Position numbers and translations under genes: made by a program. This document shows, in pieces, positions 29,279 to 56,544 of a stretch of DNA of 64,000 nucleotides (position 1 is its first letter; each line of letters begins with the position of its first letter). The notes under the pieces were generated by a model. It ran no database searches, was not told where the DNA came from, and saw only the letters and a program-made list of their open reading frames with translations. Location of the stretch: contig JBGVRO010000010.1 of the NCBI GenBank assembly GCA_045128515.1, positions 4,489 to 68,488 of the forward strand, given 5' to 3'. Source of the DNA: Eubacteriales bacterium (lineage in GTDB: Bacteria; Bacillota; Clostridia; Oscillospirales; CAG-272).

Positions 29279-29340
29279 ATCGAACCCCCTTATTGTTTTA
29301 ATTATACAGGTTCGAAGCAAAAAAGTCAACCGTGATAATA

Positions 29341-40473: not shown

Positions 40474-41962
40474 TGATTATTTCTGAGAACTTGTTTGTAA
40501 TCGAGTTAACAAGGGTGTCAATATGGGTAATATCCGAGTCACCCTTCTCGGGGAATTTGTGAGTGAATACCTCGCTGTCATCAAAGAAGTTGAGGAATGT
40601 CTTCATATTTTTTCCGGATAAGTAATAATTCTTCGGATCAACCGCGTGTCTTTCAACCAAAAGGTCTGATAGCATTTTTGAGGGAGGGATATTTCCTTCA
40701 AGGTTAACGAAGAAATGCTCCTTTTTATACTCCTCGGTGATCTTTATCTCCTCGCACACCGATTCGGTAGACATAACTCGCTTGCTTAAATAGAATACAA
40801 CGCCTTGGCAATCCTCGCTGCCGATACCCTTGGCGATCTGACCCTTCCAGTCTAATCCCTGAGTCAGTCTTTCGTCATATCTGAAGGGAACCTTGCGCTT
40901 GTAAAGCTCGATAAGATCACAGTATACCGACTTAAAGTCCTTTGAGGAATAGCAAACGAAGAAGAACTTATCTCCACGGCGTAAGTCGGGAAGGGGAGGG
41001 AGGATCGATGCCGAAACACAGTGATCCTGGTCGGATGCCTCTAAAATTGCCTTTTTACGTCTTTCAAGCTCCTCTAAGCTAGCGGGGAATCTGGGCGACG
41101 CCTTTCTGTCGATAACGTCATCCATATATTCCTTAAATTCCTCGTATTTTGCTCTCTCCTTTTCAAGATAGCGATTTCTGTTGTAATAAATATTGTAAAG
41201 ATATACGTCAGCCTGCTCGTCGATAAGCGCCGTAGCCTCGTCCCTTGCATCTATAAGCTGTTCTGTGTTCATTCCCTCACGTACTGCGGATAAGAAGGTC
41301 AACTGCGCTTTAAGGAAATAATATTTGGGATATGCGGGATTGAATGCTATTGCTCGGTCTATATATTGCTTTGCAAGTGCGATGTCATTGCCTTTGAGAG
41401 AGGGCTCTCTCTTTCTGAGCATAATGCATACAGTGGATGCGTACGAGATCAAAAGTCCTACGTTCTCGACCCCTCTGCTGCCAAGCACATTGATGGCAAG
41501 TTTGTCACAGGAAAGCGCTTTCTTAAAATTGTCAACTCGCTTAAAATATCGGGAATACACCTCGAAATGTAAAGCAAAGTTTCCAAAAATGTCATATTTT
41601 GCCGAAGTAAGGCTTAAAAGCCCTTCTTGGTTATCCTCTTTTTTGTAGATAAGTGAGAGGGCATAATAGGCTGCAAAGTAGATGTTTTCCTTGGCGTCAT
41701 AGTCAGCGTCAGCCTCTGCAAGTGAAAGTATTTCCTCAAGGCATAAAGAAAGCTCCTTAGGCGCGGTTTCAACAAAAACGTCCATCGCTAAGGTAAAATC
41801 GTATTTCTCAACGGTAAATTCATCGGTGATGATTCGAAGCACTTGGCAGATCGGATCAATTCGTCCATCTTCATCACTCCAATCGATGTTTAAGGAGGTA
41901 ATAGTTTTCCTTACGAATGCCTTTACGTCATCCTGCAATCTCTGATTGTTACTCATAGCCAC
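40463..41962 (-). CDS. TPR-like helical-repeat protein with a C-terminal TIR-like domain
   Basis: The N-terminal ~300 aa are helical repeats. Residues ~335-470 read FFFVCYSSKDFKSVYCDLIELYKRKVPFRYDERLTQGLDWKGQIAKGI..CQGVVFYLSKRVMSTESVCEEI. This matches the bacterial TIR pattern (F.SYS.KD....L...L......D.....G..W...I...I.....V..S......S.W...E). Confidence 0.62.
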   Translation of the reverse strand: MAMSNNQRLQDDVKAFVRKTITSLNIDWSDEDGRIDPICQVLRIITDEFTVEKYDFTLAMDVFVETAPKELSLCLEEILSLAEADADYDAKENIYFAAYYALSLIYKKEDNQEGLLSLTSAKYDIFGNFALHFEVYSRYFKRVDNFKKALSCDKLAINVLGSRGVENVGLLISYASTVCIMLRKREPSLKGNDIALAKQYIDRAIAFNPAYPKYYFLKAQLTFLSAVREGMNTEQLIDARDEATALIDEQADVYLYNIYYNRNRYLEKERAKYEEFKEYMDDVIDRKASPRFPASLEELERRKKAILEASDQDHCVSASILPPLPDLRRGDKFFFVCYSSKDFKSVYCDLIELYKRKVPFRYDERLTQGLDWKGQIAKGIGSEDCQGVVFYLSKRVMSTESVCEEIKITEEYKKEHFFVNLEGNIPPSKMLSDLLVERHAVDPKNYYLSGKNMKTFLNFFDDSEVFTHKFPEKGDSDITHIDTLVNSITNKFSEIIIGD

Positions 41963-42079: not shown

Positions 42080-43078
42080 TTAGTTGTAAACGTATGTATT
42101 CAAAAACTCCCATATTTTCTCTGCGGGAATAGCATAACTGATATCGTTGTCACCGGTCGAGCCCGCATAATTAACGCCCACAACGTCAAGGTTACTGTTG
42201 AGCAATGGACCGCCGCTTGATCCTCCCTTGATGTCGGCATTGTGTCTTATTACGTCAAAGGTTACGTTGCTTTCATTTTTAGGTGTATCGTCAAGAGTTA
42301 TGGCCTTGTATTCCTTTACTTTACCAAAGGTAATAGTATTAGTCTGTCCGTCGGGTGTGCCGAGGGAAATTACGTCATCCTGAAGATGGGGATTTGTTCT
42401 CAAAATTTCAAGAGGCTTTACCTCTGTGCTACCCGATTTGAAGTAAATGCAGGCTAAATCGTAGTCCGCAGACTTCGCTTCTTTATTTTTGCTCGGGTTG
42501 GTGTAAAGCTGTGCTGTGTACTGATTTCCCTTGTAATCGGTAACCCTGATCCTCATTTTGTCATATCCGGACGGCCCTTCCACTACGTGGCAATTTGTCA
42601 GTATGTAGTAATATCCGTCGTTTTCGCTGATGCAGAAGCCGGATCCGAGATACCAACCGGTCTTGTCGGTTTCTATCATTCCCCAAAGGACCTCATTGTA
42701 ATACTGGCACTCGATCTTAACGATGCTTTTCATAGCATTTTGAGAAATTTCATTGGTGATCTTCCCGGCATCAAGCTCAAACTTTGCATATAAGGTCAGA
42801 TCCGAGTGTACCTCCTCCGAAAAGTCGTATCTCTCGGTGCACGCATAGTTGGAGAACCAACCGAGAAAAACATAGTTTTTCTTTACAGGATCAGCGGGCA
42901 TTGAAACCCTGTCGCCGTCATTGACGTAAATCACGCTTGAGTTGTTAGCGTTGTATACGAAGGCTACCTCCCAGCTACCCTTGGGGCGGTCTGACGCACC
43001 GTCATTTTTGCCACAGGATATCATCAGGCAACAAACGAGGCAGCTAAGGATCAAAAGCAAAAGGAACTGTTTCTTCAT
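42080..43078 (-). CDS. Trypsin-like (S1) serine protease lipoprotein with a Listeria-Bacteroides repeat
   Basis: Lipobox LMISCG. The repeat is Y.FLGWF.........DF...V..DLTLYAKF. The catalytic triad contexts are TNCHVV (His), DLACIYF (Asp) and GGSSGGPL (Ser). Confidence 0.8.
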   Translation of the reverse strand: MKKQFLLLLILSCLVCCLMISCGKNDGASDRPKGSWEVAFVYNANNSSVIYVNDGDRVSMPADPVKKNYVFLGWFSNYACTERYDFSEEVHSDLTLYAKFELDAGKITNEISQNAMKSIVKIECQYYNEVLWGMIETDKTGWYLGSGFCISENDGYYYILTNCHVVEGPSGYDKMRIRVTDYKGNQYTAQLYTNPSKNKEAKSADYDLACIYFKSGSTEVKPLEILRTNPHLQDDVISLGTPDGQTNTITFGKVKEYKAITLDDTPKNESNVTFDVIRHNADIKGGSSGGPLLNSNLDVVGVNYAGSTGDNDISYAIPAEKIWEFLNTYVYN

Positions 43079-43372: not shown

Positions 43373-43981
43373 ATGTTCGGTAGCATAAAGGAAGTATGGG
43401 GCGGTGAGATGAAGAAGATCACAATGTCTATTATGATAATTTTTCTTTGCCTTACGTCTGTTGTCGGCGTTACTTGGGCGTTGTTTACACACAGCAACGA
43501 CGGCAAGATCGGTATAAATACAACCAGCGGCTATATTGACATGGATATCGTTGATACGAATGGGGACTCACTTGTTGATAAGGTTCTTGAATTTGAATCC
43601 GGTGTCGACAACAGAGAAACGATTTACTTTGAACCTGGCGCAACCTTCCATACCCAGGGCTTTAAGGTTGTGAACAACGGTAATATAAATGTTAATTACC
43701 GTGTTTACATCAGTAACGATGAGACTGAAAACATGGAGTCATTCAACAAGGCGTTCGAGCTTTGGATCTGCGAGGATCTGAGCAAGATAAACGAGGCGAA
43801 GAAGATAACCGAGTTTGAGGGAACTCTCGGTCCTGAGGAAAGCGGCAAGGTTTACTATCTTGTAATCAGGATGAAGGAAAGCGCAGGCAATGAATTCCAA
43901 AACAAGGTTTACAGCGGTATCGGAATAACCGTGTACGCAGTACAGGGTAACGTTAATATAAACAGCATTCCGCACGATTAA
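43373..43981 (+). CDS. TasA/camelysin-like small subunit with a SipW-class signal peptide
   Basis: ..IIFLCLTSVVGVTWALFTHSNDG...TSGYIDMDI, and the domain-closing motif AGNEFQNKVYSGIGITVYAVQ. RBS ggaggtga. Confidence 0.8.
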   Translation: MFGSIKEVWGGEMKKITMSIMIIFLCLTSVVGVTWALFTHSNDGKIGINTTSGYIDMDIVDTNGDSLVDKVLEFESGVDNRETIYFEPGATFHTQGFKVVNNGNINVNYRVYISNDETENMESFNKAFELWICEDLSKINEAKKITEFEGTLGPEESGKVYYLVIRMKESAGNEFQNKVYSGIGITVYAVQGNVNINSIPHD

Positions 43982-43990
43982 GGAGTTTGT

Positions 43991-45202
43991 ATGGAAATAA
44001 AAAACAATAAAGTACTTAACATCATACTCAAGGTTGTAACGGGCTTACTGATAGCATTCACCGTATTCATTATGATCTTCACCGTCGTATCGGTTACCAC
44101 CCTTGACAAAAATGACCGTAACCTTTTCGGTTTCAGATTCTACATAGTACAGACCGACTCAATGAGTCCCTCTGAAAACAATGCTCATCTCGACGTTCAT
44201 TTCAGCGCAGGTGACATCGTTGTTATCAAGAACGTTAAGAATCCTACTAAGCTTGAGGCAGGAGATATCATTGCTTTTATCTCGACTAACAAGGTAAGCT
44301 ACGGCGAGACCGTAACGCATATGATCCGTAAGCCTACGGTTGATAAGGATGGCAGAACCTGTTACGTTACTTACGGTACTAACACTAATACTGATGATGA
44401 AGCGTGCGTGTATCCCGAGTACGTAATCGGCGAGTACGCAGGCAAGCTTCCCGGTGTCGGACACTTCTTCGCATTCGTTAAGTCCACCCCCGGTTACATC
44501 TGCTGTATTTTGATTCCTTTCCTGCTTCTCATACTTTATAACGGCGCTGACGTAATCCGCCTGTTCAGAAAGTACAAGAAGGAGCAGACCGCTATACTCG
44601 ATGCCGAAAAGGCTGAGATCGCCGCAGAGAGAGCGCGTAATGAGGAAATGCTTCGCGAGCTTCTTGCTCTTAAGAATCAGCTCGCAGGTAATGCTCCTGC
44701 CGAGGCACAGCCCACAGCGACTGCCGAAGCACCTGTCACAGAGACAGCGCCTGTCGTAGAAGCGGCTCCCACGGTTGAGGAGAAGCCCATGACAGAGGAG
44801 GAGATCGCTGCTCAGAAGAAGGCTGAAGCTGCTCGCAAGCGTAAGGAAACCCTCGCTCGCAAGAAGGCAGAGGCAGAGGCGGCAAAGCTCGCTGAGGAGG
44901 AGGCTGCACGTAAGGCTGCCGAGGAAGAGGCACAGCGTCTTGCTGATGAGGCTGCCGCACAGAAGAAGGCTGAGGCTGCTCGTAAGCGCAAGGAAACTCT
45001 TGCTCGTAAGAAGGCAGAAGCTGAGGAAGAGGCGGCACGTGTTGCTGCTGAAGAAGAGGCACAGCGCCTTGCTGATGAAGCTGCCGCACAGAAGAAGGCT
45101 GAAGCTGCTCGCAAGCGTAAGGAAACCCTCGCTCGCAAGAAGGCAGAGGCAGAGGCGGCAAAGGCTGCTGAAAACAATCCCGACGACAAGTCGGACACTT
45201 AA
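43991..45202 (+). CDS. sipW: Archaeal/ER-type (S26B, SipW-like) signal peptidase I with a ~210-aa Ala/Glu/Lys-rich C-terminal tail
   Basis: N-terminal TM, the Ser box VQTDSMSP, GDIVVI and GDIIAF boxes, the His box VTHMI and a second TM (YICCILIPFLLLILY). Three tail repeats of AAQKKAEAARKRKETLARKKAEAE follow. Confidence 0.8.
   Translation: MEIKNNKVLNIILKVVTGLLIAFTVFIMIFTVVSVTTLDKNDRNLFGFRFYIVQTDSMSPSENNAHLDVHFSAGDIVVIKNVKNPTKLEAGDIIAFISTNKVSYGETVTHMIRKPTVDKDGRTCYVTYGTNTNTDDEACVYPEYVIGEYAGKLPGVGHFFAFVKSTPGYICCILIPFLLLILYNGADVIRLFRKYKKEQTAILDAEKAEIAAERARNEEMLRELLALKNQLAGNAPAEAQPTATAEAPVTETAPVVEAAPTVEEKPMTEEEIAAQKKAEAARKRKETLARKKAEAEAAKLAEEEAARKAAEEEAQRLADEAAAQKKAEAARKRKETLARKKAEAEEEAARVAAEEEAQRLADEAAAQKKAEAARKRKETLARKKAEAEAAKAAENNPDDKSDT
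44807..45165 (+). repeat. Three tandem coding repeats (periods 144 and 129 bp) in the SipW tail
   Basis: Copies begin at 44807, 44951 and 45080. The first and third are nearly identical at the DNA level (gaagaaggctgaagctgctcgcaagcgtaaggaaaccctcgctcgcaagaaggcagaggcagaggcggcaaag). Confidence 0.85.
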
Positions 45203-45278
45203 TTTTGTTCTATCCGCTTCGGCGTTTAGATATTGTTTAGTTATTGGTCTTTAAAAATATAAAAAGGAGGAAAAAATT

Positions 45279-47252
45279 ATGACCAATTTAAAGGCAACTA
45301 AGAAGGCGTTGGTAAGCAGCGTTCTCGCGCTTGTTATGTGCTTTACAATGCTTCTTGGTACAACATTTGCATGGTTCACCGATTCTGTAACCAGCGCAAA
45401 TAACGTAATTCAGACCGGTACCCTCGACGTAGGATTCCAGTGGGCTGAAGGTAATGAAGATCCTTCTACCGCTACTTGGAACGATGTTGAAGGTGCACTC
45501 TTCAACTATGCTAACTGGGAGCCCGGTTATGCAGTAGCAAAGCATCTCAAGATTTCCAACAATGGTTCTCTTGGCCTTAACTACAAGGTTCGTATCTTCG
45601 CAAACGGCGTTGTTAGCGACCTTGCTGAGGTAATCGACGTTTACGTTGTAGCAGGTGCTGTTGATGCAATGGATCGTAACACTCTTGCAGGTCTTGAGCC
45701 CGTTGGTACTCTTACTCAGGTTCTTCTTGCAAGCGGCGCAGACGATGCTGAGAACGAAGCTGACATGGGCTATGATGTTAGCGAGCTTATCAAGGGTTCT
45801 CTTGATGTTGACGCAGACGATCACGTTTACACTCTCGTTCTTAAGATGAATGAGAACGCAGGTAACGAGTATCAGGATATGGATCTCGGCTGTACCTTCT
45901 CCGTTCAGCTCCTTGCAACTCAGATGGCAGCAGAAGAGGATAGCTTCGACAATCAGTACGATGCAGTTGTTCCCAACGAGGAAATTCCTGCAGCACTTGT
46001 AAGACCTCTTGATAATCTCTCTGTTGTAGTTGGCGAGCACGTTGATTACGGCGATATGAGTGGTAATCTTACTCTTGACACAGGCTACAAGTTCCAGCCT
46101 ACCGCATCGCTTGAGGATAATGAGAAGTCTCTGTACAGACATTGGATAGCAGATTACGTTGTCTATGCTGATGCAGACGTTCCCGCAAATTCCATGGCAC
46201 TTGCAGGTTACTACAAGTTATTCTGCGAAGGATTTAACGACGGTAACTGGATAGCACTTAGAGCTGAGGAAGATATCGCGGCAGGAACAGAGATTCGTCT
46301 TGTAGAGGCAATGGGCGGAGGAGATATTTTTGTATCTTACAAGGATATTTGCCAGTGGGGTGCTGACGGATATGGATTCCAGTGTGGCGCAGTTGACCTG
46401 ACCGGCGAGAACATGGGTACTACCATCACTGTTGAGCTTCGTATTTACGAGACAACAGCTGATTGGACTGATTCCCGCGCTTCCAGCGAAGAGACCGGCA
46501 ACTACATCACAATCGGCAAGTTCGAGTACACCTTTGGTGTTAACACCGCAGAGAAGCTTGAGTATGCTCTCACCAACAGTGGCGAGTACAAGCTCACCTC
46601 TGACATCGAGCTTGATGCAGACGATACTATCACCGTTCCTGCAGATGTAACTACCGTTATTGACCTTAACGGCTATACTATTACTGCAGTTTCCGATGAT
46701 GCAGACGAGAACGATGACGGCAAGCTCACTTCCGCTGATAACGAGGTTGCAATCGACGTGAGAGGTAATCTCACTGTTAAGAACGGAACAATCACCATGG
46801 AGCATAAGTCTGACAACTTTGGTTGGAACGCATGCACCGAGGTGTTCTACGTTGCATTTAACGGAACTCTGAATGTTGACAATGCAGTTATTGCAAACCT
46901 TGGCGGATCCGACATGGCGTATGCGATTGACATTGTAAACGCAACTAACGCAACCGTAAACGTAACTAATTCCACTCTCAAGTCCACATATATCCCCGTT
47001 CGTGTATTCAACAATGGCACCGGTATGAACCACGTAACCATTAAGAATACCAAGCTTGACGGTGTAAGCCGTGCTTTCTGGGTACATATTTATTCCAATG
47101 CGGATAACAGCGGCAAGGGAATTAAGGATGCAACTCTGGATCTTGATATCTACGGAAACGGCAATACCTTTATTGCAAAAGATCCCGCAAGAATCATTGA
47201 GTTTGGATTTACGGACGAAATCAACTTCGACGCAAACGGCAACCAGATTTAA
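45279..47252 (+). CDS. TasA-like N-terminal domain fused to a beta-helix passenger (657 aa)
   Basis: Signal ..LVMCFTMLLGTTFAWFTDSVTSANNVIQTGTLDV and domain end AGNEYQDMDLGCTFSVQLLATQ. The C-terminal half is rich in beta-helix-like N.T(V/I).N repeats. Confidence 0.8.
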   Translation: MTNLKATKKALVSSVLALVMCFTMLLGTTFAWFTDSVTSANNVIQTGTLDVGFQWAEGNEDPSTATWNDVEGALFNYANWEPGYAVAKHLKISNNGSLGLNYKVRIFANGVVSDLAEVIDVYVVAGAVDAMDRNTLAGLEPVGTLTQVLLASGADDAENEADMGYDVSELIKGSLDVDADDHVYTLVLKMNENAGNEYQDMDLGCTFSVQLLATQMAAEEDSFDNQYDAVVPNEEIPAALVRPLDNLSVVVGEHVDYGDMSGNLTLDTGYKFQPTASLEDNEKSLYRHWIADYVVYADADVPANSMALAGYYKLFCEGFNDGNWIALRAEEDIAAGTEIRLVEAMGGGDIFVSYKDICQWGADGYGFQCGAVDLTGENMGTTITVELRIYETTADWTDSRASSEETGNYITIGKFEYTFGVNTAEKLEYALTNSGEYKLTSDIELDADDTITVPADVTTVIDLNGYTITAVSDDADENDDGKLTSADNEVAIDVRGNLTVKNGTITMEHKSDNFGWNACTEVFYVAFNGTLNVDNAVIANLGGSDMAYAIDIVNATNATVNVTNSTLKSTYIPVRVFNNGTGMNHVTIKNTKLDGVSRAFWVHIYSNADNSGKGIKDATLDLDIYGNGNTFIAKDPARIIEFGFTDEINFDANGNQI

Positions 47253-47275
47253 TTAGGATCTTGTCGTAATTTGTC

Positions 47276-47297
47276 CCCAAGCCCCTCGGGGCTTGGG
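47276..47297 (+). other. GC-rich stem-loop without a U-tract, just after the 657-aa gene
   Basis: cccaagcccc-tc-ggggcttggg (10-bp stem). Confidence 0.6.
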
Positions 47298-47365
47298 CGG
47301 CAACAAAAGGGCATGAAGATTCCCTATATATAATATTAATGTAGCTTCCTGCCTTTTTGTTGTCG
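47298..47365 (+). other. Long-range 16-bp stem enclosing a 36-nt AT-rich loop, immediately upstream of the giant gene
   Basis: cggcaacaaaagggca (47298-47313) pairs with tgcctttttgttgtcg (47350-47365), with 14 Watson-Crick and 2 G-U pairs. Confidence 0.55.
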
Positions 47366-47400
47366 CAAATATAAAAAACATTTGAAAGGATTCACCGACA

Positions 47401-50400
47401 ATGAACCCCACCCAAAAATCATTTCTGACAAGCATCGTTGCTTTGGTGCTCTGCCTTACCATGTTCCTCGGCACAACATTTGCATGGTTCACCGACATTG
47501 TGGTAAGCGGCGGCAACATTATCCAGTCCGGTAAGCTCGATGCCGAGATGTATTGGTCTGACGAGTACCTTGCCTCCACCGACAGCGGTTGGACACAGGT
47601 TAAGGACAACAAGCCAATATTCACCTACGATAACTGGGAGCCCGGCTATACTGAAATTAAGTATATTAAGGTAGCAAATGCCGGCAACCTTAACTTCAAG
47701 TGGAAGCTTTCCATTGAGGCAGAGGGCAAGGTAACAGACCTCTCCGACGTTATCGACGTTTATTACGTTAATCCCGTAAACGGTGAGCTTACTAAACAGG
47801 CTCTTGCAGCACGCACTCCTGACGGAAAACTCACTGACGTTCTTGCAAACAAGACCGCTACCGAGGGCGATCAGCTTACTCCCGGCGGATCTGTTGTTCT
47901 CGCAATCGCGTTCCAGATGGATAAGCTTGCAGGCAACGAGTATCAAGAAAAGTCCCTTTGTGATAAGGGCTTCTCGCTTAAGCTCCTTGCAACTCAGGCA
48001 ACAGGCGAAAACGACAGCTTTGACGATCAGTACGACAAGGAGTCCGAATGGCCCGAAATTCCTTCCGCAGGAAACAACGCATCTGCTGACGTTCCTACCG
48101 ATGCGAACGGTGTTGTTACAACCGAAACTACCATTACCGGCAACGGTATGAGCGCAACCGTTCCTGCAGGTACTCAGCTTACCCAGGGCACAAACAAGCT
48201 GACTCTCAGCGTTAACAACGTAGAGGACAGCAAGGCAAACGTAACTCTTGCTGAAGGCGAGGAGCTTCGTGCTCTTGACGTACATATCTCCGGCGTAGCC
48301 GAGGGTAACACCACTCCTATTGCCGTAACTCTTACCGAGGCATTGCCCAAGGGTCTTAATATCGGTAACTACACCCTCCACCACGTAGAGGATGGACAGA
48401 CCGTTCCGATGACTCTGCTTGCCGACGGCGCAACTCCCGTACACAACAACTTCACCTACGATCCCGTAACAGGTGACGTAACCCTCTATATGGCATCCTT
48501 CTCGGAGGTTGACCTTATTGCAGAGCCTGCAAAGTGGGAGGGTAAAAGAGATTACTCTTGGTACACAAATGCTGTTGCTCCTGTTGACGGTGAGGCTGTA
48601 ACCGAGTACGTAATCGCAAACGCAGACCAGCTTGCAGCCTTCAGCGCAATCGTTGGTGGAATGGACGGTCAGACTCGCGACTCTTTCGTAGGTAAGACCG
48701 TAAAGCTCGTTGCCGACATCAACCTTGGCGACAAGGAAAGCGAAAATAACCCCGAAGTTATCTTCTATCCCATCGGCTACTACAACTCCGAGGGAACTTA
48801 TGAAAGAACTAACACCGCCATTACCTCCGGACTTAGAATCTTCGAGGGTACATTTGACGGTAACGGTCACACCGTTTCTAACTTCTACCACAACACATGG
48901 GAGATGAAGGGTGACCACGACTGGTATTCACCTGAAGAACAGTATTACCGCGACGGTATGGGTCTGTTCGGTCGTGTTTACAAGGGTACTGTAAAGAACC
49001 TTACTGTAAAGAACTTCTCCTCTGACGGTGAGATCGCAACCACAGGCGTTATCGCTGCTTATGCAGACGGCGCAACATTTGAAAACATCGCAATCTTCAA
49101 CTGTAATCCTCGCGTTTACAACATCGGTAACGGTGGTATTGTAGGCTGCGTTGGTTGGTATGCAAAGGATGCTGGTTTAACAACTACCTTTAAGAATATT
49201 ACAGTTGATAATTCTAACAAGATCTCCGCACTTTGGGGCTCTTATGACGTAGCTTGCGGCGGTATCGTTGGTCAGTACTATCCTACCAGCGGTCAGACCT
49301 CTGCAGGTACTCCCAAGAACGCAGGTATCTCCTTCGAGAACTGCCACGTTTCCGCAGTTATGGACGTTTATAACGACGTTTGCGCAAACTATCAGTACTA
49401 TGCTTACCGTTACACCGGTATGCTTATCGGTTCCGTTCGTGAGAATGTAACTATTGACGGTCACTCCTACCCCAAGATGGACGGCATCACAGCAAAAGAT
49501 TGCACCGTTCACTTCGGCACATGGAATGATTACTACTATTGTGAGATTATCGATAATACCACAGCATCTTATACCCACGATTATCAGATGAGCCGTCTTA
49601 CCGAGATCAAGGCCATCGATGGCACAACCATCACCTATCTCGACGGCACAACAGGTACCGTTCCTGCATCCGGCAGAGCCAACTACGTTATCGTTGACTA
49701 CACCAAGGGACACGGCACCGAGAACGCAACCTGCTATCACTTTAAGGATGGAGCAGTTTGGACTCACGATATGGGCGGTGCTCATGACGGCACCGACGGC
49801 GGAAAGATAATTGACGAGAACGGTGACGGTAAACCCGACCTCAGAGAAGATAAGCAGCACATCTACCTCGAATTCAACAACCTCGTAACCGGCTACGGCT
49901 GGGGTGTAACATCTAGAGGATTCAATAACCTCAACGGTGTTACTAATCTTGATATTCAGCAGGGCGAACAGGAATCTTCCGTTGAAAAGTTTGAGGATGC
50001 AGGATATACTCCTAAGGATTACAGACCTGGTGAAACAATCACGATCGGAGATCTCTTTAATGTAAAGGGTAATGCTGTTATCAACGGCAAGTCTGTATAT
50101 GTTTCTGTTTCTCCTGTAACTGAGGACGATAAGGTAAGCGCTACCTTCCAGCTCGATCCTGATGATTGGACAAAGAGCACTATCACCTTCGCGGCTGACT
50201 CTACCGGTACCGCAAAGGTAACTATTACAGATTATATCTTCTGTACTCCTACTACAATCTACCTTAACGAGGAAGAAGCAAAAACAAAGTTTACTGCAAA
50301 TAGTGTTTCTGCACAGGAAGCATATACACAGATTACTCTTAGCACCATCTTTGGTGTTAAGAACGGTGCAACAATCGGTAATGTTACCGCGACTGTAACT

Positions 50401-53295
50401 GATCCTAACGGAAACAAGATTACAGTTACCGGAACAAGCTCCGATTGGACATCCAAGACAATAGATCTCATTAAGGAAGGTAAATGGACAGTTTCTATTG
50501 TTGACGACGATAAGTATTGCGCAGCAACTGAAGCAACCTTCACTGTAGATAAGGTTGATAAGTTTACTAAGAAGTTTGATAAGAACTTCCTCTATCGTGT
50601 AGGTAACGAAAATACTGTTGATATCGGTTACATCTTTGGTGAAATCGAAACAGTGGTTGGACTTTCCTCTGTAAATGTTTCTATTACCAATGTTGCAGGA
50701 AATGCAAGCGGAAACTTTACTGCTAACACTTCCGACTGGACAAAGGGAACAATTCAGTTCACCGGCACAGGTGTTGTTAAGGTGACTATTAGTGCTGATG
50801 GAGCAAATCCGATTGATATCAATCTTGAGGTTATTGATGCAACCAACCTTACAAGTGCAACCGGCACAACCACCGGTGGAAACTTTGTACTTGTTAAGGA
50901 CGTTAACACAGCCACTTATGTGAACTATTGGAACTGTACTATTTACGGTAACGGATTCACTTATTCGCTTAATGGTGCTCCCACTGATTATAATTCAAAG
51001 CAGGGACACGGTATTCTCATTACAAAGAATGCAACACTTGATAATCTTGTAATTGTTGGTGATGTATACAATTCTTATGGTGCTTACACAAATCAGAATT
51101 GTTACAATACGGCAGTTGACGTAGTTGGAGATACCACAATTCAGAATTGTTATATCGCTAACTGTGCAGCTCCTGTCAAGGCTCGTAGCAACGTTACAAT
51201 TAAGAACTCCACTTTGTATGGTGGAACAGTGGCGAACCTTCTTATAATGTCCGGTACTGCAACCCTTGAAAATGTAACCACCGCTAACTATGATGATGGC
51301 AGAGCGCTCGTTGGTATGGGTATAGTAATCCACTCCGATGCTACTGAAACTGCAAAGCTTGTTCTTAACGGAACCCTCACACAGTACAATTTCATTAGCG
51401 AGAGTAAAGTTCCTACAGATACATACGCAAAGAATCTTCATGACGCGATGTTTGGTAGTAATTGCAGTCAGTATCAGTTCGGCACATCACCTAATCGCTA
51501 TGTTAATACCGGTATTATCTCCTTAACATCTACATTCAACGGAGAGGATATTACCGATAACGCTAATACAGGTTATGTTGGTAAGTCTGTTTCTGCAAGT
51601 GGTTTCAATGGATATGTTTATACACAACTGAATACAAGCGGATCAGTAAATAACAATTATCCCGAGTATAAGCCTACCACTCAGGGAGCTGTTCCTCCTA
51701 GCTATTCTTTCGATTACACTAACAAGAACTATATAGCTAAGACAGAGGGCTCTAACGACTACTGTTACGAAGAGAATGGTAGAGTTAATATCTCCGTGGA
51801 TCAGGGCGATACTTTCAATTGGGATACATCTATTCTTACAATTGGCAAGGGTATAACAAGCTACACTGTTTCAATGAATGGCACCGACTACACAGGAAAG
51901 TCTATCGCATTCAACACAGCTGGTGATTACATTGTAACGTATATTTACACAGATGAGAATAACTACAAGCTTGATGAAAACGGTAATATAACTACATACA
52001 GTGTAACTCACACAAAGACAGTTAATATTACTGTTGCCGTAGTTGAAGCGACTACCAAGCATGCAGAGTTTACTTTTGGTAGCTCCAATACAGCTTCCAC
52101 AACCGTAACAGTCGGAAATAACACCTACGTTATGCCTAATGTGAGTGGCACGTCTAGTACTATTGGAAGCACTACGGTTAGTGGTCAGACTATATACTAT
52201 CCTATTGTAGAAATCATCATGTCTGACGGAAAGACTAGCCATACGAGCGGTTGGTACGCTTATTTCCCTGTATTTAGCGGCGCGGTGACTATTACCGATT
52301 ACGCTAATAACGGAACAGGCGATAAGATGACACCTTACGATGGTTCTACAACTACTATGCCTAGCGATCTTTCGATAGTTGGTGATCCTACACAGCTCTT
52401 TAAGTATCAGTCGTCTTCTGCGGCAGGCAGCACGCCTGTTGTTAAGAACAACAAACTCGTATATAGTTCCGCTAAAATTGAGGCAAAGCGTAGCGAATAT
52501 AACACTGTAATTCAGTATAGCTACACCGATAACGCTGGTGCAACTTACTACTATTATATTGGCTATCATGCACCTGCACAGTCGTACACAAGTTGCGTCA
52601 CCCCCGACACTCTTGTAACTCTTGCAGATGGTACTCAAGTACGTGTTGATTCTTTGACTGGTAATGAAATGTTGCTTGTGTGGAATCATCAGACTGGTGC
52701 TTTGGAGAGCGTTCCAGTAGCATACATTGTAGATCATGAAGGCGTTGTTTCTGAACAAGAAATTATCCGTCTGAATTTTGCTAACGGCAAAACGGTAAAA
52801 ATCATTGGGGAACACGTATTCTTTGATGCAACGCTCAACAAGTACGTTGCAATCACCTCCGAAAATGCAGAGTCATTTATCGGTCACAAGTTTGCCGCTC
52901 TTGATGCTAACAGCGAAACCTTGGAAATGGTTGATTTGATTTCTGTTGAAAGAGAAGTTAAGGAAACCACTGTTTATGAGGTAGTTTCCTACAAGCATTT
53001 GACATGCTTCACCGAGGGAATCCTTTCTACTTCTGCTTACCTTGATCCCTTGCTCAATACATTCGATATTGATGCGGATACAATGGCATACGATGCAGAG
53101 CTTGTACAGAAGGATATTGAAACCTACGGACTTTACACTTATGCAGATTTTGAAGACCTGATTTCTGAGGAAGCATTTGAACTTTACAATGCTGCATATC
53201 TTAAGATTGCAATTGGCAAGGGATATATCACTTGGGATGACATTCTCGAAATGATAGATATCTACTTTGATGTAGAAGTTCAGCCTATTCAGTAA
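47401..53295 (+). CDS. Giant (1964 aa) TasA-like-domain protein with GLUG/beta-helix and Ig-like passengers and a C-terminal Hint domain plus an ~87-aa tail
   Basis: Signal ..LVLCLTMFLGTTFAWFTDIVVSGGNIIQSGKLDA and domain end AGNEYQEKSLCDKGFSLKLLATQ. FEGTFDGNGHTVSN is a GLUG-type repeat. There are three ..DWTK.TI.F...G.AKVTI modules. The Hint domain starts at Cys1732. Confidence 0.82.
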   Translation: MNPTQKSFLTSIVALVLCLTMFLGTTFAWFTDIVVSGGNIIQSGKLDAEMYWSDEYLASTDSGWTQVKDNKPIFTYDNWEPGYTEIKYIKVANAGNLNFKWKLSIEAEGKVTDLSDVIDVYYVNPVNGELTKQALAARTPDGKLTDVLANKTATEGDQLTPGGSVVLAIAFQMDKLAGNEYQEKSLCDKGFSLKLLATQATGENDSFDDQYDKESEWPEIPSAGNNASADVPTDANGVVTTETTITGNGMSATVPAGTQLTQGTNKLTLSVNNVEDSKANVTLAEGEELRALDVHISGVAEGNTTPIAVTLTEALPKGLNIGNYTLHHVEDGQTVPMTLLADGATPVHNNFTYDPVTGDVTLYMASFSEVDLIAEPAKWEGKRDYSWYTNAVAPVDGEAVTEYVIANADQLAAFSAIVGGMDGQTRDSFVGKTVKLVADINLGDKESENNPEVIFYPIGYYNSEGTYERTNTAITSGLRIFEGTFDGNGHTVSNFYHNTWEMKGDHDWYSPEEQYYRDGMGLFGRVYKGTVKNLTVKNFSSDGEIATTGVIAAYADGATFENIAIFNCNPRVYNIGNGGIVGCVGWYAKDAGLTTTFKNITVDNSNKISALWGSYDVACGGIVGQYYPTSGQTSAGTPKNAGISFENCHVSAVMDVYNDVCANYQYYAYRYTGMLIGSVRENVTIDGHSYPKMDGITAKDCTVHFGTWNDYYYCEIIDNTTASYTHDYQMSRLTEIKAIDGTTITYLDGTTGTVPASGRANYVIVDYTKGHGTENATCYHFKDGAVWTHDMGGAHDGTDGGKIIDENGDGKPDLREDKQHIYLEFNNLVTGYGWGVTSRGFNNLNGVTNLDIQQGEQESSVEKFEDAGYTPKDYRPGETITIGDLFNVKGNAVINGKSVYVSVSPVTEDDKVSATFQLDPDDWTKSTITFAADSTGTAKVTITDYIFCTPTTIYLNEEEAKTKFTANSVSAQEAYTQITLSTIFGVKNGATIGNVTATVTDPNGNKITVTGTSSDWTSKTIDLIKEGKWTVSIVDDDKYCAATEATFTVDKVDKFTKKFDKNFLYRVGNENTVDIGYIFGEIETVVGLSSVNVSITNVAGNASGNFTANTSDWTKGTIQFTGTGVVKVTISADGANPIDINLEVIDATNLTSATGTTTGGNFVLVKDVNTATYVNYWNCTIYGNGFTYSLNGAPTDYNSKQGHGILITKNATLDNLVIVGDVYNSYGAYTNQNCYNTAVDVVGDTTIQNCYIANCAAPVKARSNVTIKNSTLYGGTVANLLIMSGTATLENVTTANYDDGRALVGMGIVIHSDATETAKLVLNGTLTQYNFISESKVPTDTYAKNLHDAMFGSNCSQYQFGTSPNRYVNTGIISLTSTFNGEDITDNANTGYVGKSVSASGFNGYVYTQLNTSGSVNNNYPEYKPTTQGAVPPSYSFDYTNKNYIAKTEGSNDYCYEENGRVNISVDQGDTFNWDTSILTIGKGITSYTVSMNGTDYTGKSIAFNTAGDYIVTYIYTDENNYKLDENGNITTYSVTHTKTVNITVAVVEATTKHAEFTFGSSNTASTTVTVGNNTYVMPNVSGTSSTIGSTTVSGQTIYYPIVEIIMSDGKTSHTSGWYAYFPVFSGAVTITDYANNGTGDKMTPYDGSTTTMPSDLSIVGDPTQLFKYQSSSAAGSTPVVKNNKLVYSSAKIEAKRSEYNTVIQYSYTDNAGATYYYYIGYHAPAQSYTSCVTPDTLVTLADGTQVRVDSLTGNEMLLVWNHQTGALESVPVAYIVDHEGVVSEQEIIRLNFANGKTVKIIGEHVFFDATLNKYVAITSENAESFIGHKFAALDANSETLEMVDLISVEREVKETTVYEVVSYKHLTCFTEGILSTSAYLDPLLNTFDIDADTMAYDAELVQKDIETYGLYTYADFEDLISEEAFELYNAAYLKIAIGKGYITWDDILEMIDIYFDVEVQPIQ
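52594..53033 (+). other. Hint (hedgehog/intein-like, BIL-type) domain inside the 1964-aa CDS
   Basis: Block A C-VTPDTLVTLADGTQVRVDSL, block B-like KIIGEHVFF and a block F/G-like segment TTVYEVVSYKHLTCFTEGILSTS. The terminal His-Asn and a +1 nucleophile context are absent. Confidence 0.7.
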
Positions 53296-53305
53296 TTAAA
53301 ATTAC

Positions 53306-53331
53306 CCCCCCCGACCTTCGGGTCGGGTGGG
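53306..53331 (+). other. GC-rich stem-loop without a U-tract, just after the giant gene
   Basis: cccccccgacc-ttcg-ggtcgggtggg (11-bp stem with one mismatch). Confidence 0.55.
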
Positions 53332-53395
53332 ATTACCCCCAAAAATAAACGGAATTGATGAAAAGACGAAATAAAACGAAAGGAGGTTATTCGTT

Positions 53396-53920
53396 GTGAG
53401 CTTTTTTGAAAAACTCAAAAAGCCTGAGGAGGCTGAGGATGAAGTCGTTACCGACAAGGCATTTATGCGTGGCATAATTACATCATTCTTTGCAATCGCT
53501 ATGTGTATTATTATGCTGGGCGCTTCTACTTACGCCTGGTTTACCACTTCTATTCAGAGCACTCAGACAATATCCTCTGCCGTTTATGTTTTAAGTATTA
53601 AGGTCGATGGTGGCGGTGAGATACTTAGTCCCACAACGTATAAAGGTAACGACGTCTACACCCTTGAGGGAGGTAAGACCTATACCGTAACCGTAACCGC
53701 CGTCGAGGAGGGTACTACCGGTAACACAGGCTACATAAAGCTTGAGATCGGTGACCAAAGCTTTGTTTCAGATCAGATTGACCGTGGAAAAACGATCACC
53801 TTCACCCTTACGTTTACCGAGGAAACCGAGGTAACGATTGTTGAGGGCTGGGGAACGTCCAGCGCCGAGGTCAGAACGATCCATAACAATGGCAAATACG
53901 ATAACAATAACCTAAAGTAA
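53396..53920 (+). CDS. TasA-like small subunit (174 aa) with a SipW-class signal peptide
   Basis: GTG start 8 nt after aggagg; ..FFAIAMCIIMLGASTYAWFTTSIQSTQTISS. Confidence 0.72.
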   Translation: MSFFEKLKKPEEAEDEVVTDKAFMRGIITSFFAIAMCIIMLGASTYAWFTTSIQSTQTISSAVYVLSIKVDGGGEILSPTTYKGNDVYTLEGGKTYTVTVTAVEEGTTGNTGYIKLEIGDQSFVSDQIDRGKTITFTLTFTEETEVTIVEGWGTSSAEVRTIHNNGKYDNNNLK

Positions 53921-53985: not shown

Positions 53986-54447
53986 GTGCTCAGTATATTG
54001 ATCCTTGTCGGTGTTGGACTGATGATATGGATGCTTTTGGCAGATCATGGTGGCGAGGCGATCAAGGTACGCGTTGACGTTGACATTGCGGTCGAAGCAG
54101 GTATCAATGACGTAGTAATCGTTCCCGGATATAAAAATGAATATCACCTGAAGGTGACGGCAGATAAGCCGGATGAGTATGATTTGACCTTCTCCTTCGT
54201 AGAACAGGGCAACACAGCAAACGCCCTGAAGGATAACCTCTACATCCTCATCGAGCATGACGGTGTAGTGTACTGCGATGCAAAGCTCTCCGAGCTTTAT
54301 GAGGGCGGTCCGACAATGACCCTTCAGCTTAAGCGACTTGTGGCGCAGGACGTTAAGGTTATCTATTATATCCCCGAAGAAGTTGGCAATGAAATTAAGG
54401 GCGACGAAATTGATTTCGGATTGTTTATCACTGCCCGAGAAAAGTGA
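53986..54447 (+). CDS. Divergent TasA-like small protein with an N-terminal TM and no AxFTD motif; start uncertain
   Basis: The frame is open from 53932. A GTG at 53986 would begin inside the TM helix. The C-terminal motif EVGNEIKGDEIDFGLFITA parallels the AGNEYQ...ATQ ends of its neighbours. Confidence 0.55.
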   Translation: MLSILILVGVGLMIWMLLADHGGEAIKVRVDVDIAVEAGINDVVIVPGYKNEYHLKVTADKPDEYDLTFSFVEQGNTANALKDNLYILIEHDGVVYCDAKLSELYEGGPTMTLQLKRLVAQDVKVIYYIPEEVGNEIKGDEIDFGLFITAREK

Positions 54448-54454
54448 GAAATTT

Positions 54455-55249
54455 ATGGACAAAAATTTACTTAAAAAGATCGGGGATATTGCAGCTAACG
54501 TTGTAATGTACATTTTCCTTGCCGTGTGCATTCTGTCAGTTATTATGACCGTGTTCGGCAAGAGAGATGCGGACGGCACCGTCGAGATCTTCGGACATCA
54601 GATGCGAATCGTAGTTTCCGACTCAATGGCAAAGTCCGAGTTTACCGACGTTTCGGATTACAAAATTAAGCATATTCCCATTAACACTATGGTGTTTATC
54701 AAGCTTGTGCCTGATGATCCCGTCCTGGCGGATCAGTGGTATGACGATATTGAGATCGGTGACGTTCTCACCTTCCGTTACGTATACACAAATCAGGTTA
54801 CGATAACCCACCGTGTTGTTGATATTAAAGAAAAGGATACCGGCGGCTACCTCATTTATCTTGAGGGAGATAACAAAAATTCGGACTCCGAGCTGCTTAA
54901 GCAGACGATCGATACCTCGATCCCCAACAGCACCAATTACGTAATTGGTAAGGTCGTTGCAACGAATTTCCTGTTCGGTTTATTCCTTAGCATTATTAGA
55001 AAGCCTATTGGCGCAATTTGTATTATCATTCTTCCTTGTTTCATCATTATTCTGATCGAGGTGCTTAAGATCGTGCGTGTGCTTAACGCCGACAAAAAGC
55101 AGCAGAATCAGGACGAAATGGCGAAAAAGGAAAGCGAGCTTGAGGAGCTTCGTCGTCAGCTTGCAGCTCTGCAGAACGCACAGCCTGCTGAAAATTCTGA
55201 TGAGCCGACACCTGCAAGTGAATCTAACGAAGATAATAAGGAGGTATAA
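54455..55249 (+). CDS. sipW: Second SipW-like (S26B) signal peptidase I
   Basis: N-terminal TM, Ser box VVSDSMAKS, GDVLTF, His box ITHRVVDI, GDNKNSD, a second TM and an acidic/coiled tail. The start is at the ATG at 54455 (MDKNLLKK). Confidence 0.8.
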   Translation: MDKNLLKKIGDIAANVVMYIFLAVCILSVIMTVFGKRDADGTVEIFGHQMRIVVSDSMAKSEFTDVSDYKIKHIPINTMVFIKLVPDDPVLADQWYDDIEIGDVLTFRYVYTNQVTITHRVVDIKEKDTGGYLIYLEGDNKNSDSELLKQTIDTSIPNSTNYVIGKVVATNFLFGLFLSIIRKPIGAICIIILPCFIIILIEVLKIVRVLNADKKQQNQDEMAKKESELEELRRQLAALQNAQPAENSDEPTPASESNEDNKEV

Positions 55250-55822
55250 ATGTACACTTTTATTATCATATTCTTGATTATAGCCACTATTTTCGCTATC
55301 GGAACGCTTATTTACGTTGTTGCCGATACTATCCTCGATCTCTTCAGAAAGAAGCCTGAGGAAGAAGAAAAGGTGGTTGAACAGCCCCCTGTTGTTGTGG
55401 TTGTTCCTGAACCCGAGCCTGAACCTGAGCCTGAGCCTGAGCCCGAACCCGAGCCCGAGCCTATACCCGTACCCGTAGTTATTCCTGTTCTTGAGGTAGA
55501 GCAGATCGACGCGGTTGAGGCAGATGCTATGATTCCTGACGAGGTTGCAATGGGATCTGTCCGCTACGAAAGCGGTGCAGGACACGGTAAGAAGGGTGAA
55601 ATTAACATCGGTGTTATTGACCAGCACTTTGAAGATGGCGAGGTCATCACCATTCAGGCACTTAAAAATAAAAATCTTATCAGCAGAAAGGATTGCCGCA
55701 TAAAGGTACTTGCCCACGGCATCCTTAGAAAGAGCTTCACCGTTAAGGCTGAAGCATTCTCGGTCGAGGCAATTAAGATGATCGAGCTTATGGGCGGTAC
55801 AGTAATAATTTTAGTTGATTGA
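55250..55822 (+). CDS. Membrane-anchored protein: N-terminal TM, (EP)n linker and a domain homologous to the C-terminal half of ribosomal protein uL15
   Basis: TM FIIIFLIIATIFAIGTLIYVVA followed by RKK, then (PE)x10. The segment KKGEINIGVIDQHFEDGEVITIQALKNKNLISRKDCRIKVLAHGILRKSFTVKAEAFSVEAIKMIELMGGTVIIL follows. It aligns with B. subtilis RplO ..[73 protein letters not shown]. Confidence 0.75.
   Translation: MYTFIIIFLIIATIFAIGTLIYVVADTILDLFRKKPEEEEKVVEQPPVVVVVPEPEPEPEPEPEPEPEPEPIPVPVVIPVLEVEQIDAVEADAMIPDEVAMGSVRYESGAGHGKKGEINIGVIDQHFEDGEVITIQALKNKNLISRKDCRIKVLAHGILRKSFTVKAEAFSVEAIKMIELMGGTVIILVD
55406..55476 (+). repeat. Hexanucleotide (GAR-CCY) coding microsatellite encoding (EP)n
   Basis: cctgaacccgagcctgaacctgagcctgagcctgagcccgaacccgagcccgagcct... 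Confidence 0.85.
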
Positions 55823-55878
55823 TATTATTGCAATAATGCAATATTTCAATATTCAACTGTTTGAAAGGAGGACAAACA

Positions 55879-56544
55879 GTGAGCCACATTAAAACAAAAA
55901 GAGCATTGCTGGTTTCCAGCGCAATAATCCTTTTGTGTATGACGATCATCGTTGGCGCTACGTACTCTCTGTTTACAGACCGCTTCTCGGTGGGCAACCA
56001 TCTTGTAGCAGGCGAGCTTGAGATTTCGCTGCAGAGAACACGCCTTGCATATATGTCTCTTGACGATGCAGGCTATCTTAGCGAAACCGTAAATAACACA
56101 GTGTATGATTTCACCGACAGAACGTCAAACAACATCTTCGGATTAGACGCAGGCAATATCAGAATTGCTCCCGGTAGTTACTTCGAGGCTGACCTTCGTG
56201 TTATCAACGATAATGCCGAGAATGCCAATTACTACTCAAACGTAGCGTTTACATACGATGTTACGTTCGTTCTTTTGGAAGGTAACCCCTACCTCGCTAA
56301 TCAGATGCAGGTAACCGTTATCGACCACTTGGGCAACGAAAAATCCATGCGACTTGACGAAGCCGTTAATGGACACGTTTTTGAGGCAGGCACTCTTGAA
56401 GCAGGCGAGATCGGTCAGAACTTTACCGTACGAGTTGAGTTCCTTGACGACGTAAACTACCCCGACGAGTTTGACAACGACCTGGCAAAGGGCGGAGAGC
56501 TTATCTTCGACCTTGTTGTATCCGCTGTTCAGGCGACCAAGTAA
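55879..56544 (+). CDS. TasA-like small subunit (221 aa) with a SipW-class signal peptide
   Basis: GTG start 6 nt after aaggagga; ..IILLCMTIIVGATYSLFTDRFSVGNHLVAGELEI. Domain end DNDLAKGGELIFDLVVSAVQ. Confidence 0.75.
   Translation: MSHIKTKRALLVSSAIILLCMTIIVGATYSLFTDRFSVGNHLVAGELEISLQRTRLAYMSLDDAGYLSETVNNTVYDFTDRTSNNIFGLDAGNIRIAPGSYFEADLRVINDNAENANYYSNVAFTYDVTFVLLEGNPYLANQMQVTVIDHLGNEKSMRLDEAVNGHVFEAGTLEAGEIGQNFTVRVEFLDDVNYPDEFDNDLAKGGELIFDLVVSAVQATK

Follow-up and report, generated by a model that had tools for sequence, protein, structure and literature searches.

A uL15-like module on a membrane protein encoded beside a SipW-type signal peptidase in a Eubacteriales bacterium

A membrane protein gene with a uL15-like domain

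The window analyzed here is the whole of a 64,000-nucleotide (nt) stretch of contig JBGVRO010000010.1 (assembly GCA_045128515.1, positions 4,489 to 68,488) from a Eubacteriales bacterium. It contains a locus with two sipW genes and several genes for TasA/camelysin-like proteins, and between the second signal peptidase gene, sipW2, and one of the TasA-like genes lies a gene for a 190-amino-acid (aa) protein, which we call the uL15C gene (Table 1). Its product consists of one transmembrane (TM) helix, a basic cluster, an acidic proline-rich linker and a folded C-terminal part. The domain in this C-terminal part is a non-ribosomal homologue of the C-terminal domain of ribosomal protein uL15, that is, a member of Pfam family PF00828 but not RplO.

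A preliminary description of this DNA, made from the sequence alone, had placed the start of the open reading frame (ORF) right behind the second sipW stop, and indeed the ATG begins on the base following the TAA codon (55247-55249) of the upstream SipW-like ORF. The layout proposed at that time, from the TM helix and RKK to the acidic linker and the C-terminal domain, is seen both in the sequence and in the AlphaFold model, where residues 86-190 have a predicted local distance difference test (pLDDT) score of about 89-95. The spacer had been counted as (PE)x10; the array encodes nine PE units plus a proline. In a family alignment (A1) the TM helix sequence is unusually conserved, with F8, A12, A16, Y22, V23 and D26 invariant or nearly so, and the linker differs in length among homologues. 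The hairpin region behind the linker comprises helices 88-94 and 97-102 and a strand 105-108 in the model, and residues A88, A91, D92, A100, E107 and G113 are invariant in the alignment. The conserved module measures about 105 aa overall, of which the Pfam-defined uL15 portion makes up about 70; the uL15-like domain of about 85 aa described earlier was thus correct in its homology and too long.

The homology to the C-terminal half of uL15, which the preliminary description had read from aligned residues, was recovered by three kinds of search. PF00828 (Ribosomal_L27A) matched residues 117-186 over profile positions 1-72 of 72 with E=7e-14 and 52.5 bits (gathering cutoff 21.5). A profile built from 49 family members and searched against PDB sequences matched solely uL15 chains, plus a weak L18e match, the best being residues 75-143 of Enterococcus faecalis uL15 (6o8w_M, E=1.3e-12). 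In Foldseek searches with the AlphaFold model the top matches were all uL15 chains, with a root-mean-square deviation of 1.0-1.5 Å over 69-72 residues. The uL15 signature IKVLADG.LTK.LT.KA..(F/Y)S..A...IE..GG is retained, including lysines common to E. faecalis uL15. At one position the protein has K176-M177 (KMI) in place of the uL15 residues, a feature specific to the paralogues. Because the uL15C core and residues 75-143 of E. faecalis uL15 have equal charge counts (10 K/R and 10 D/E each), electrostatics speak neither for nor against RNA binding by the core. The best uL15 matches are Firmicutes proteins, consistent with a possible origin by duplication of the 3' half of rplO in the host lineage itself.

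Several results separate the protein from RplO. The model for bacterial RplO (TIGR01071) scored 46.2 bits, below its equivalog cutoff of 77.95, and aligned over profile positions 74-143 of 144 only. True uL15 has a Gly/Arg/Lys-rich N-terminal extension of about 70 aa that reaches into the 23S rRNA; as had been noticed before, this extension is absent here, and residues 1-85 form the TM helix and acidic proline-rich linker instead. The gene also lies outside the spc operon (rpmD-rplO-secY), both here and in 34 related loci, where it stands between sipW2 and a tasA-like gene. The related loci, fetched with 10 kb on either side, contain no spc operon, and no second uL15-like sequence occurs within the 64-kb window. 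More than 260 metagenomic relatives of 165-230 aa have exactly the same TM-linker-uL15C architecture, and one metagenome-assembled genome (MAG), JAFVUB01, has two copies of the uL15C gene (L008 and L025). Annotation pipelines label these relatives 'ribosomal protein L15', 'L18E' or hypothetical.

A tail module shared by many surface proteins

To survey the module, residues 85-190 were searched against 1.84 billion representative proteins, which yielded 1722 matches with E<=1e-3, and 464 clusters reached E<=1e-10; the relatives are without exception metagenomic or from MAGs. A second homologue search with a module profile again returned mostly the short family, carrying only automated 'L15/L18E' labels. 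We sorted the best 149 representatives into architecture classes with a simple hydropathy script. Short proteins with an N-terminal TM helix, like the window protein, account for 25 of them, and 46 are type I proteins with a classical N-terminal signal peptide, a large ectodomain, one TM helix and the module at the extreme C-terminus. A further 31 have one TM helix and no recognisable signal peptide (many of these are fragments), 40 have no TM helix and 7 have several hydrophobic segments. In the type I class a very hydrophobic TM helix lies 100-600 residues before the end, with a median of 4 residues after the module. These carriers are 900-3655 aa long, some with extracellular Listeria-Bacteroides repeats, and basic residues directly after the TM helix are followed by an acidic or proline-rich linker (for example, IFSKRNDDDDKPEPP and VILKKKKKVEPEPEPEPD).

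Across all architectures the module has 14 invariant and 11 near-invariant columns, with the consensus DA.EAD...D..A ... N.. ... K.LA.G ... S..A.KMI.L.GG, and the window protein has the invariant columns. Before the uL15C core every architecture has the acidic helix-turn-helix and strand, which uL15 lacks. Signature residues of uL15, the common lysines among them, are kept at 45-50% identity across very divergent module proteins. The finding is thus broader than first described: the window protein shares its tail module, widespread, uncharacterised and most probably cytoplasmic, with many surface proteins of Firmicutes. In agreement with the earlier remark that no characterised example was known, a literature search found no description of non-ribosomal uL15-like membrane proteins.

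Two observations concern individual representatives. P0155 (523 aa) has two tandem uL15C modules in its cytoplasmic tail, at residues ~300-370 and 446-516 (two Pfam stretches). In P0133, P0135, P0231 and P0243 (150-210 aa) a partial uL15C module follows the N-terminal part of an unrelated enzyme, by eye a Mini-RNase III, NUDIX, PfkB kinase or Maf protein; these four are probably chimeras of assembly or gene calling.

The membrane topology was assessed from hydropathy and charge statistics. Averaged over 109 representatives, K/R number 0.9 in the 12-residue stretch ahead of the last TM helix and 3.4 in the 12-residue stretch behind it; they are more numerous behind the helix in 93 of the 109 and fewer in 4. 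Given the type I topology and the positive-inside rule, the module is therefore predicted to be cytoplasmic, and the window protein most probably has an N-out/C-in orientation. The cytoplasmic location proposed from RKK alone is thus backed by the 46 type I proteins that end in the module and by the K/R excess behind the TM helix.

The module also occurs away from sipW genes. TM-linker-module proteins with a different TM sequence were found in unrelated neighbourhoods, beside genes for glycosidases, GDSL lipases and aconitase-X-like proteins. The neighbourhoods of the non-SipW members also include a short-chain dehydrogenase/reductase and other proteins with Flg_new (Listeria-Bacteroides) repeats, and no recurrent partner gene appeared in them. 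Soluble proteins with the module have a basic N-terminus, K/A/E-rich repeats and no signal peptide. In Bacilli and Mollicutes they occur in a conserved arrangement (Table 1) that lies opposite a gene for RqcH/NFACT, and in three Bacilli MAGs they are found about 100-240 nt upstream of rpsL-rpsG-fusA-tuf. The module is nearly absent from viruses, with 1 locus in 2.9 million viral contigs, and on this ground a phage origin was rejected.

Between the TM helix and the module, 56 of the 149 representatives have an unannotated domain, present one to three times and about 150 aa long, with the consensus VRYR.SF.SRLIQ...IKN.LLSYKGVKAR.SW...VKGK.L.VYLALDP.EY...KYHF.D.SD...VPM..KVKSDRALKYALELI. This tail domain had no Pfam match even at E<=10 and no PDB sequence match with a single-sequence or a profile query, and a homologue search gave nothing. 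Its AlphaFold model (pLDDT 90.5) showed a weak Foldseek likeness to YdhG/DUF1801 and YjbR proteins, with a best E of 7e-3 and a target-normalised TM-score of 0.5-0.6. YjbR reportedly has a putative DNA-binding 'double-wing' motif.

Gene order at the SipW/TasA-like locus

The true start of sipW2 is probably at 54455 instead of 54338. Its product has SDSM, THR and GDN motifs, N- and C-terminal TM helices and a cytoplasmic coiled-coil tail. It scored 53 bits with the NCBIfam model for SipW (NF046067, cutoff 190) and 39 bits with that for archaeal-type signal peptidase I (TIGR02228, cutoff 51.85), and it matched human SEC11A with E=0.004 across the region of the catalytic His and Asp. A homologue of the modelled peptidases, it stays under the equivalog cutoffs. 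The three motifs are kept in 34 SipW2 orthologues, which also have a basic coiled-coil tail after the last TM helix; because of this basic tail we place the SipW2 tail on the same membrane side as the module. Orthologues of SipW1 and SipW2 alike all carry such a tail. That of SipW1 (residues ~200-403) is a cytoplasmic stretch of about 200 aa with three K/A/E-rich repeats of about 40 aa (AAQKKAEAARKRKETLARKKAEAE...), and its composition resembles the K/A/E repeats before the module in four soluble Bacilli proteins (L043, L044, L045 and L048).

The gene upstream of sipW2 encodes a 153-aa protein that is 'TasA-like' only by eye, from a C-terminal GNE... motif; it has no Pfam match and no meaningful NCBIfam match, and a homologue occupies the same position in at least 30 loci. 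The TasA/camelysin-like gene downstream of the uL15C gene likely starts with the GTG at 55879, behind a putative ribosome-binding site at 55864-55871, in an ORF that opens at 55861. The proteins at 45279, 55861, 56666 and 58842(-) exceed the gathering cutoff of PF12389, and the protein at 47401 scores 20.9 bits, just under the cutoff of 22.5. The neighbouring PF12389 proteins have signal peptides of the ..TFAWFTD type, and by hydropathy the SipW-type substrates of the window have no C-terminal TM helix. The 660-aa substrate scored 17.1 bits with TIGR04088 (cutoff 19).

We scanned for related loci in one genome per GTDB species, which gave 44 loci, all from uncultured animal-gut MAGs (Clostridia, Eubacteriales, Oscillospiraceae and Faecousia, with a few Bacilli and Mollicutes), and compared the proteins of the window locus with every ORF of the fetched loci. 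The conserved order begins with the 153-aa-type gene, sipW2, the uL15C gene and the 227-aa TasA-like gene, and continues with a small camelysin-like gene, a 202-aa-type gene, sipW1 and the genes for large camelysin-like substrates. In the window the two halves are swapped, but the uL15C gene and the rest of the four-gene core remain intact. A SipW2 orthologue lies directly upstream of the uL15C gene in 34 distinct loci. Among these SipW-linked loci the uL15C proteins are only 36-54% identical to the window protein, and the synteny is therefore no by-product of close kinship.

At the junction of sipW2 and the uL15C gene, stop and start codons overlap by 4 nt in 20 of the 34 loci, and the gap is at most 20 nt in 7 more. 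In 5 of the 34 the gap measures about 270 nt and contains a small ORF whose product repeats the TM helix of the uL15C protein without the domain. These TM-only paralogues are 87-92 aa long and have a different tail, either a second TM helix or an acidic repeat. No terminator-like hairpin with a T-run was found at the junction in the window, where the strongest ones come after 58648. The uL15C gene is tightly operon-coupled to sipW2, and the linkage to SipW/TasA-type loci on which the preliminary description had placed weight is conserved in 34 loci.

Other features of the window were recorded in passing. The 1964-aa substrate of the second export module has a Hint-like segment at residues ~1723-1859 that starts with CVTPDTLVTLADGT and matches Pfam Hint with E=5.6e-4, below the gathering cutoff; such a C-terminus on a protein with a TasA-type signal suggests a possible intein/hedgehog-type autoprocessing or ligation domain. 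Shortly before the export locus lie two genes, at 40463-41962 (-) and 42080-43078 (-). The product of one has 498 aa and weakly matches TIR_2 (E=1.6e-3); that of the other joins a trypsin-like serine protease to a Listeria-Bacteroides (Flg_new) repeat. At 27098-29329 (-) a BspA-type surface protein of 742 aa with leucine-rich repeats (LRR_5, E=9e-111) is encoded. Enolase, a Mur ligase, flotillin and ABC transporters are encoded elsewhere in the window, and with the BspA-type protein they point to an ordinary bacterial chromosome as the context.

Table 1. Features of the uL15C gene, of the surrounding export locus and of related loci. Positions refer to the window; entries with an L or P number refer to related loci or representatives.
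Feature	Position	Strand	Basis
uL15C gene: 190-aa single-pass membrane protein with a predicted cytoplasmic uL15C-like module	55250..55822	+	ORF; >260 homologues with the same architecture
Strong Shine-Dalgarno sequence AAGGAGG, 5 nt 5' of the ATG, within the 3' end of sipW2	55238..55244	+	direct sequence reading
TM helix, residues 2-24	55253..55321	+	hydropathy 2.84; AlphaFold helix 2-33, pLDDT ~95
Basic cluster R33-K34-K35 directly after the TM helix, positive-inside signal	55346..55354	+	sequence
Disordered acidic Pro-rich linker, residues 36-85 (4 K/R, 16 D/E)	55355..55504	+	pLDDT ~50; composition
(PE)x9 plus P (P53-P71), imperfect hexanucleotide array	55406..55462	+	TRF: period 6, 9.5 copies, 82% matches
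Family-specific acidic helical hairpin and beta-strand (IDAvEADamIpDevAm...E..GaG.G), residues 86-116	55505..55597	+	alignment A1; AlphaFold
uL15 C-terminal-domain homologue (PF00828), residues 117-186	55598..55807	+	Pfam, NCBIfam, PDB profile search, Foldseek
sipW2: Sec11/SipW-type signal peptidase homologue, below the equivalog cutoffs; stop abuts the uL15C gene start	54455..55249	+	NCBIfam, SEC11A match, orthologue consensus
Small 153-aa gene upstream of sipW2, first of the four-gene core	53986..54447	+	hydrophobic residues 1-19; synteny
TasA/camelysin-like protein with SipW-type signal peptide (..GATYSLFTD), last core gene	55879..56544	+	PF12389 24.9 bits; synteny
660-aa SipW-type substrate, TasA-like N-terminus, no C-terminal TM helix	56666..58648	+	PF12389 29.1 bits; hydropathy
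Second export module, no uL15C gene of its own	43373..53920	+	order conserved in related loci
Second module: small TasA-like gene	43373-43981	+	
Second module: sipW1	43991-45202	+	
Second module: 657-aa substrate	45279-47252	+	
Second module: 1964-aa substrate	47401-53295	+	
Second module: 174-aa gene	53396-53920	+	
TM-only paralogues between sipW2 and the uL15C gene	L005:7738-8004, L010:262-525, L011:3448-3711, L019:8582-8845, L024:9992-10270		
Soluble Bacilli/Mollicutes members, gmk-(rpoZ)-M32 carboxypeptidase-[uL15C] arrangement	L043:5977-6921, L044:9578-10348, L048:9719-10351, L054:6001-6663		
Carriers of the ~150-aa tail domain	P0122, P0140, P0189 and 53 other representatives; L035:79-1785		

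Possible roles of the module and comparison with known systems

Our tentative reading, which we offer as a real possibility short of a probability, is that the window protein is an adaptor beside SipW2 with a ribosome or RNA as its partner. As an N-out/C-in single-pass protein made together with SipW2 from one operon, it would be placed next to the peptidase in the membrane through its TM helix, and as an accessory or adaptor subunit it would use its flexible linker of about 50 residues to position a docking module beneath the site where the TasA-like fibre and adhesin proteins are exported. The TM sequence is conserved only within the SipW-linked family, which together with the TM-only paralogues in five loci points to a specific contact within the membrane. 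Giant type I surface proteins would use the module in cis, as the end of their own cytoplasmic tail. SipW substrates leave the membrane and cannot carry such a tail, and for this reason the 190-aa protein may supply it in trans. A ribosome or RNA as partner is suggested by homology, and the proposed role would be to make sure that secreted proteins of great length continue to be translated at the membrane. The partner, the association with SipW2 and any influence on export are inferred.

In favour of a ribosome or RNA partner, the only homologue is an rRNA-bound domain, and the sequence has kept its signature and the common lysines, with an unchanged charge balance. The YdhG/YjbR-like fold of the tail domains and the adjacency of a few soluble members to the str operon are hints of a link to nucleic acids or translation. 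A number of points weigh against this partner. The uL15 site of the mature 50S subunit is already filled by uL15 itself and is not located at the exit tunnel, and the N-terminal extension on which true uL15 depends is absent from the window protein. The module as a whole has an isoelectric point of 5.6, and the added hairpin and the linker are strongly acidic, which disfavours RNA binding; KMI is specific to the paralogues, and the binding surface may therefore have changed. The fold likeness of the tail domain is weak, and the rpsL adjacency is confined to a few related MAGs and lost in another (L045). The module is used in many contexts without a link to translation, its presence in TM proteins with unrelated neighbours argues for a general role not tied to SipW, and the second SipW module of the locus works without a uL15C gene.

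A wider version of this reading, which we consider unlikely, would make the duplicated uL15 C-domain, often accompanied by YjbR/YdhG-like domains, a family of ribosome or RNA receptors in gut Firmicutes. Through their tails, giant type I adhesins (in cis) and, for TasA-like giants, the 190-aa protein (in trans) would tether ribosomes, pre-50S particles or long mRNAs to the membrane. Such a family would be a bacterial counterpart of the ribosome receptors of the endoplasmic reticulum (ER), attached to a Sec11-type signal peptidase.

A rather doubtful but serious alternative is that the uL15C fold was exapted as a protein-binding or oligomerising cytoplasmic module without contact to RNA or ribosomes, so that it clusters or localises SipW2 or giant adhesins, or recruits a non-ribosomal cytoplasmic factor. 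The acidic hairpin and KMI, invariant in all architectures, argue for a new binding surface, and the overall acidity of the module, its many unrelated ectodomains and contexts (as for a generic docking or clustering tag) and the conserved coiled-coil tails of SipW1 and SipW2, which could be the partners, fit such a role. The retention of the uL15 signature and its lysines across divergent proteins speaks against it; so does the co-occurring domain with its weakly matched YjbR/YdhG-like fold, annotated elsewhere as possibly nucleic-acid-binding, and so does the lack of a candidate protein partner conserved beside the non-SipW members. We consider it improbable that the module acts only as a passive stopper, a folded domain on the cytoplasmic face that, without a specific ligand, makes the membrane anchoring firmer or resists extraction under mechanical load and that, in this operon, survives as a vestigial derivative without an ectodomain. 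Its constant position at the extreme C-terminus behind a single TM helix in giant adhesin-like proteins is what such a device would look like, and the short form resembles a giant protein minus its ectodomain. However, a stopper would require neither so many invariant and near-invariant columns nor a conserved extra hairpin, nor tight translational coupling to sipW2 in at least 20 divergent loci, and soluble members without a TM helix exist.

The remaining alternatives place the protein outside the cell or on the ribosome. An extracellular anchor comparable to TonB or TapA, with the (PE)n stretch spanning the wall and the globular end nucleating or anchoring TasA-like fibres, is very improbable: the TM-(EP)n-globular layout recalls TonB, NCBIfam TonB models match the PE stretch and the gene stands where an assembly factor could be expected, between sipW and the tasA-like gene, but there is no basic n-region before the TM helix and RKK follows it. 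Moreover, the same order of TM helix, basic residues, acidic linker and module recurs in the 46 signal-peptide-bearing type I proteins, and soluble relatives lack a signal peptide. The TonB matches, with 21 bits (cutoff 265) and 20 bits (cutoff 315), cover only the PE repeat (residues 34-91); membership in the TonB family was rejected, as the low-complexity repeat alone was matched. That the gene is the genuine rplO of the genome, or a mis-split or misannotated fragment of it, we regard as virtually impossible. The automated names of its relatives would suggest so, but the sub-cutoff match is to the C-terminal half alone, the gene has its own Shine-Dalgarno sequence and ATG, the TM helix and PE linker are conserved in more than 260 relatives, no ribosomal operon occurs among the 34 SipW-linked loci and JAFVUB01 has two copies. 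The mis-split gene that the preliminary description had allowed for is effectively refuted by the same score and the same conserved architecture.

Should the module bind ribosomes or RNA, the window protein would represent the first ribosomal-protein-derived membrane tether in bacteria, and would offer a testable mechanism for the export of 1000-3600-aa proteins and TasA-like fibres by uncultured gut Clostridia. Even with a protein partner, the case would add something undescribed to the biology of the Gram-positive envelope: a domain of a ribosomal protein that hundreds of surface-protein families have taken up as their common cytoplasmic tail and that also serves as a conserved accessory to a Sec11-type signal peptidase. 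There is also a practical side. Some marker sets for genome quality count PF00828 among their single-copy genes, and together with the 'L15/L18e' labels this means that multi-copy paralogues could inflate contamination estimates for Firmicutes MAGs. The labels could also mislead operon-based annotation.

The locus resembles the tapA-sipW-tasA operon of Bacillus subtilis, sipW-bsaA of Clostridium perfringens and sipW-tasA/calY of Bacillus cereus, in which a dedicated Sec11-type peptidase (here a homologue below the equivalog cutoffs) is likewise flanked by TasA/camelysin proteins with SipW-type signal peptides, with a small accessory gene upstream and the major subunit downstream. Unlike operons of this type it has two SipW modules and SipW proteins with long coiled-coil tails in the cytoplasm, its substrates are 650-1960 aa long, and a uL15C gene stands between sipW2 and the tasA-like gene. 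We know of no uL15-like gene in the described SipW operons, and a literature search found no SipW operon with one. With TonB the window protein shares a single N-terminal TM helix, a rigid or extended Pro-Glu spacer and a small C-terminal globular domain, whereas its predicted membrane side is opposite and its C-terminal domain unrelated. Functional analogy, and only that, connects it to eukaryotic SPCS1/SPC12 and SPCS2/SPC25, small membrane proteins with cytosolic domains beside the Sec11-type subunit, and to ER ribosome receptors such as p180, which hold ribosomes at the translocation site; topology and domain type differ from both, and kinship in sequence or fold was neither looked for nor found. 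With the C-domain of bacterial uL15 it has in common homology across the whole Pfam domain, the same fold (L15p/L18e in SCOP), an equal charge balance and the signature K[IV]LA.G.L.K.LT[IV]KA..[FY]S..A...IE..GG. In contrast to uL15, the window protein has an N-terminal TM helix, an acidic proline-rich linker and a new acidic hairpin in place of the N-terminal extension, and the module family to which it belongs can be multi-copy and is fused to giant surface proteins.

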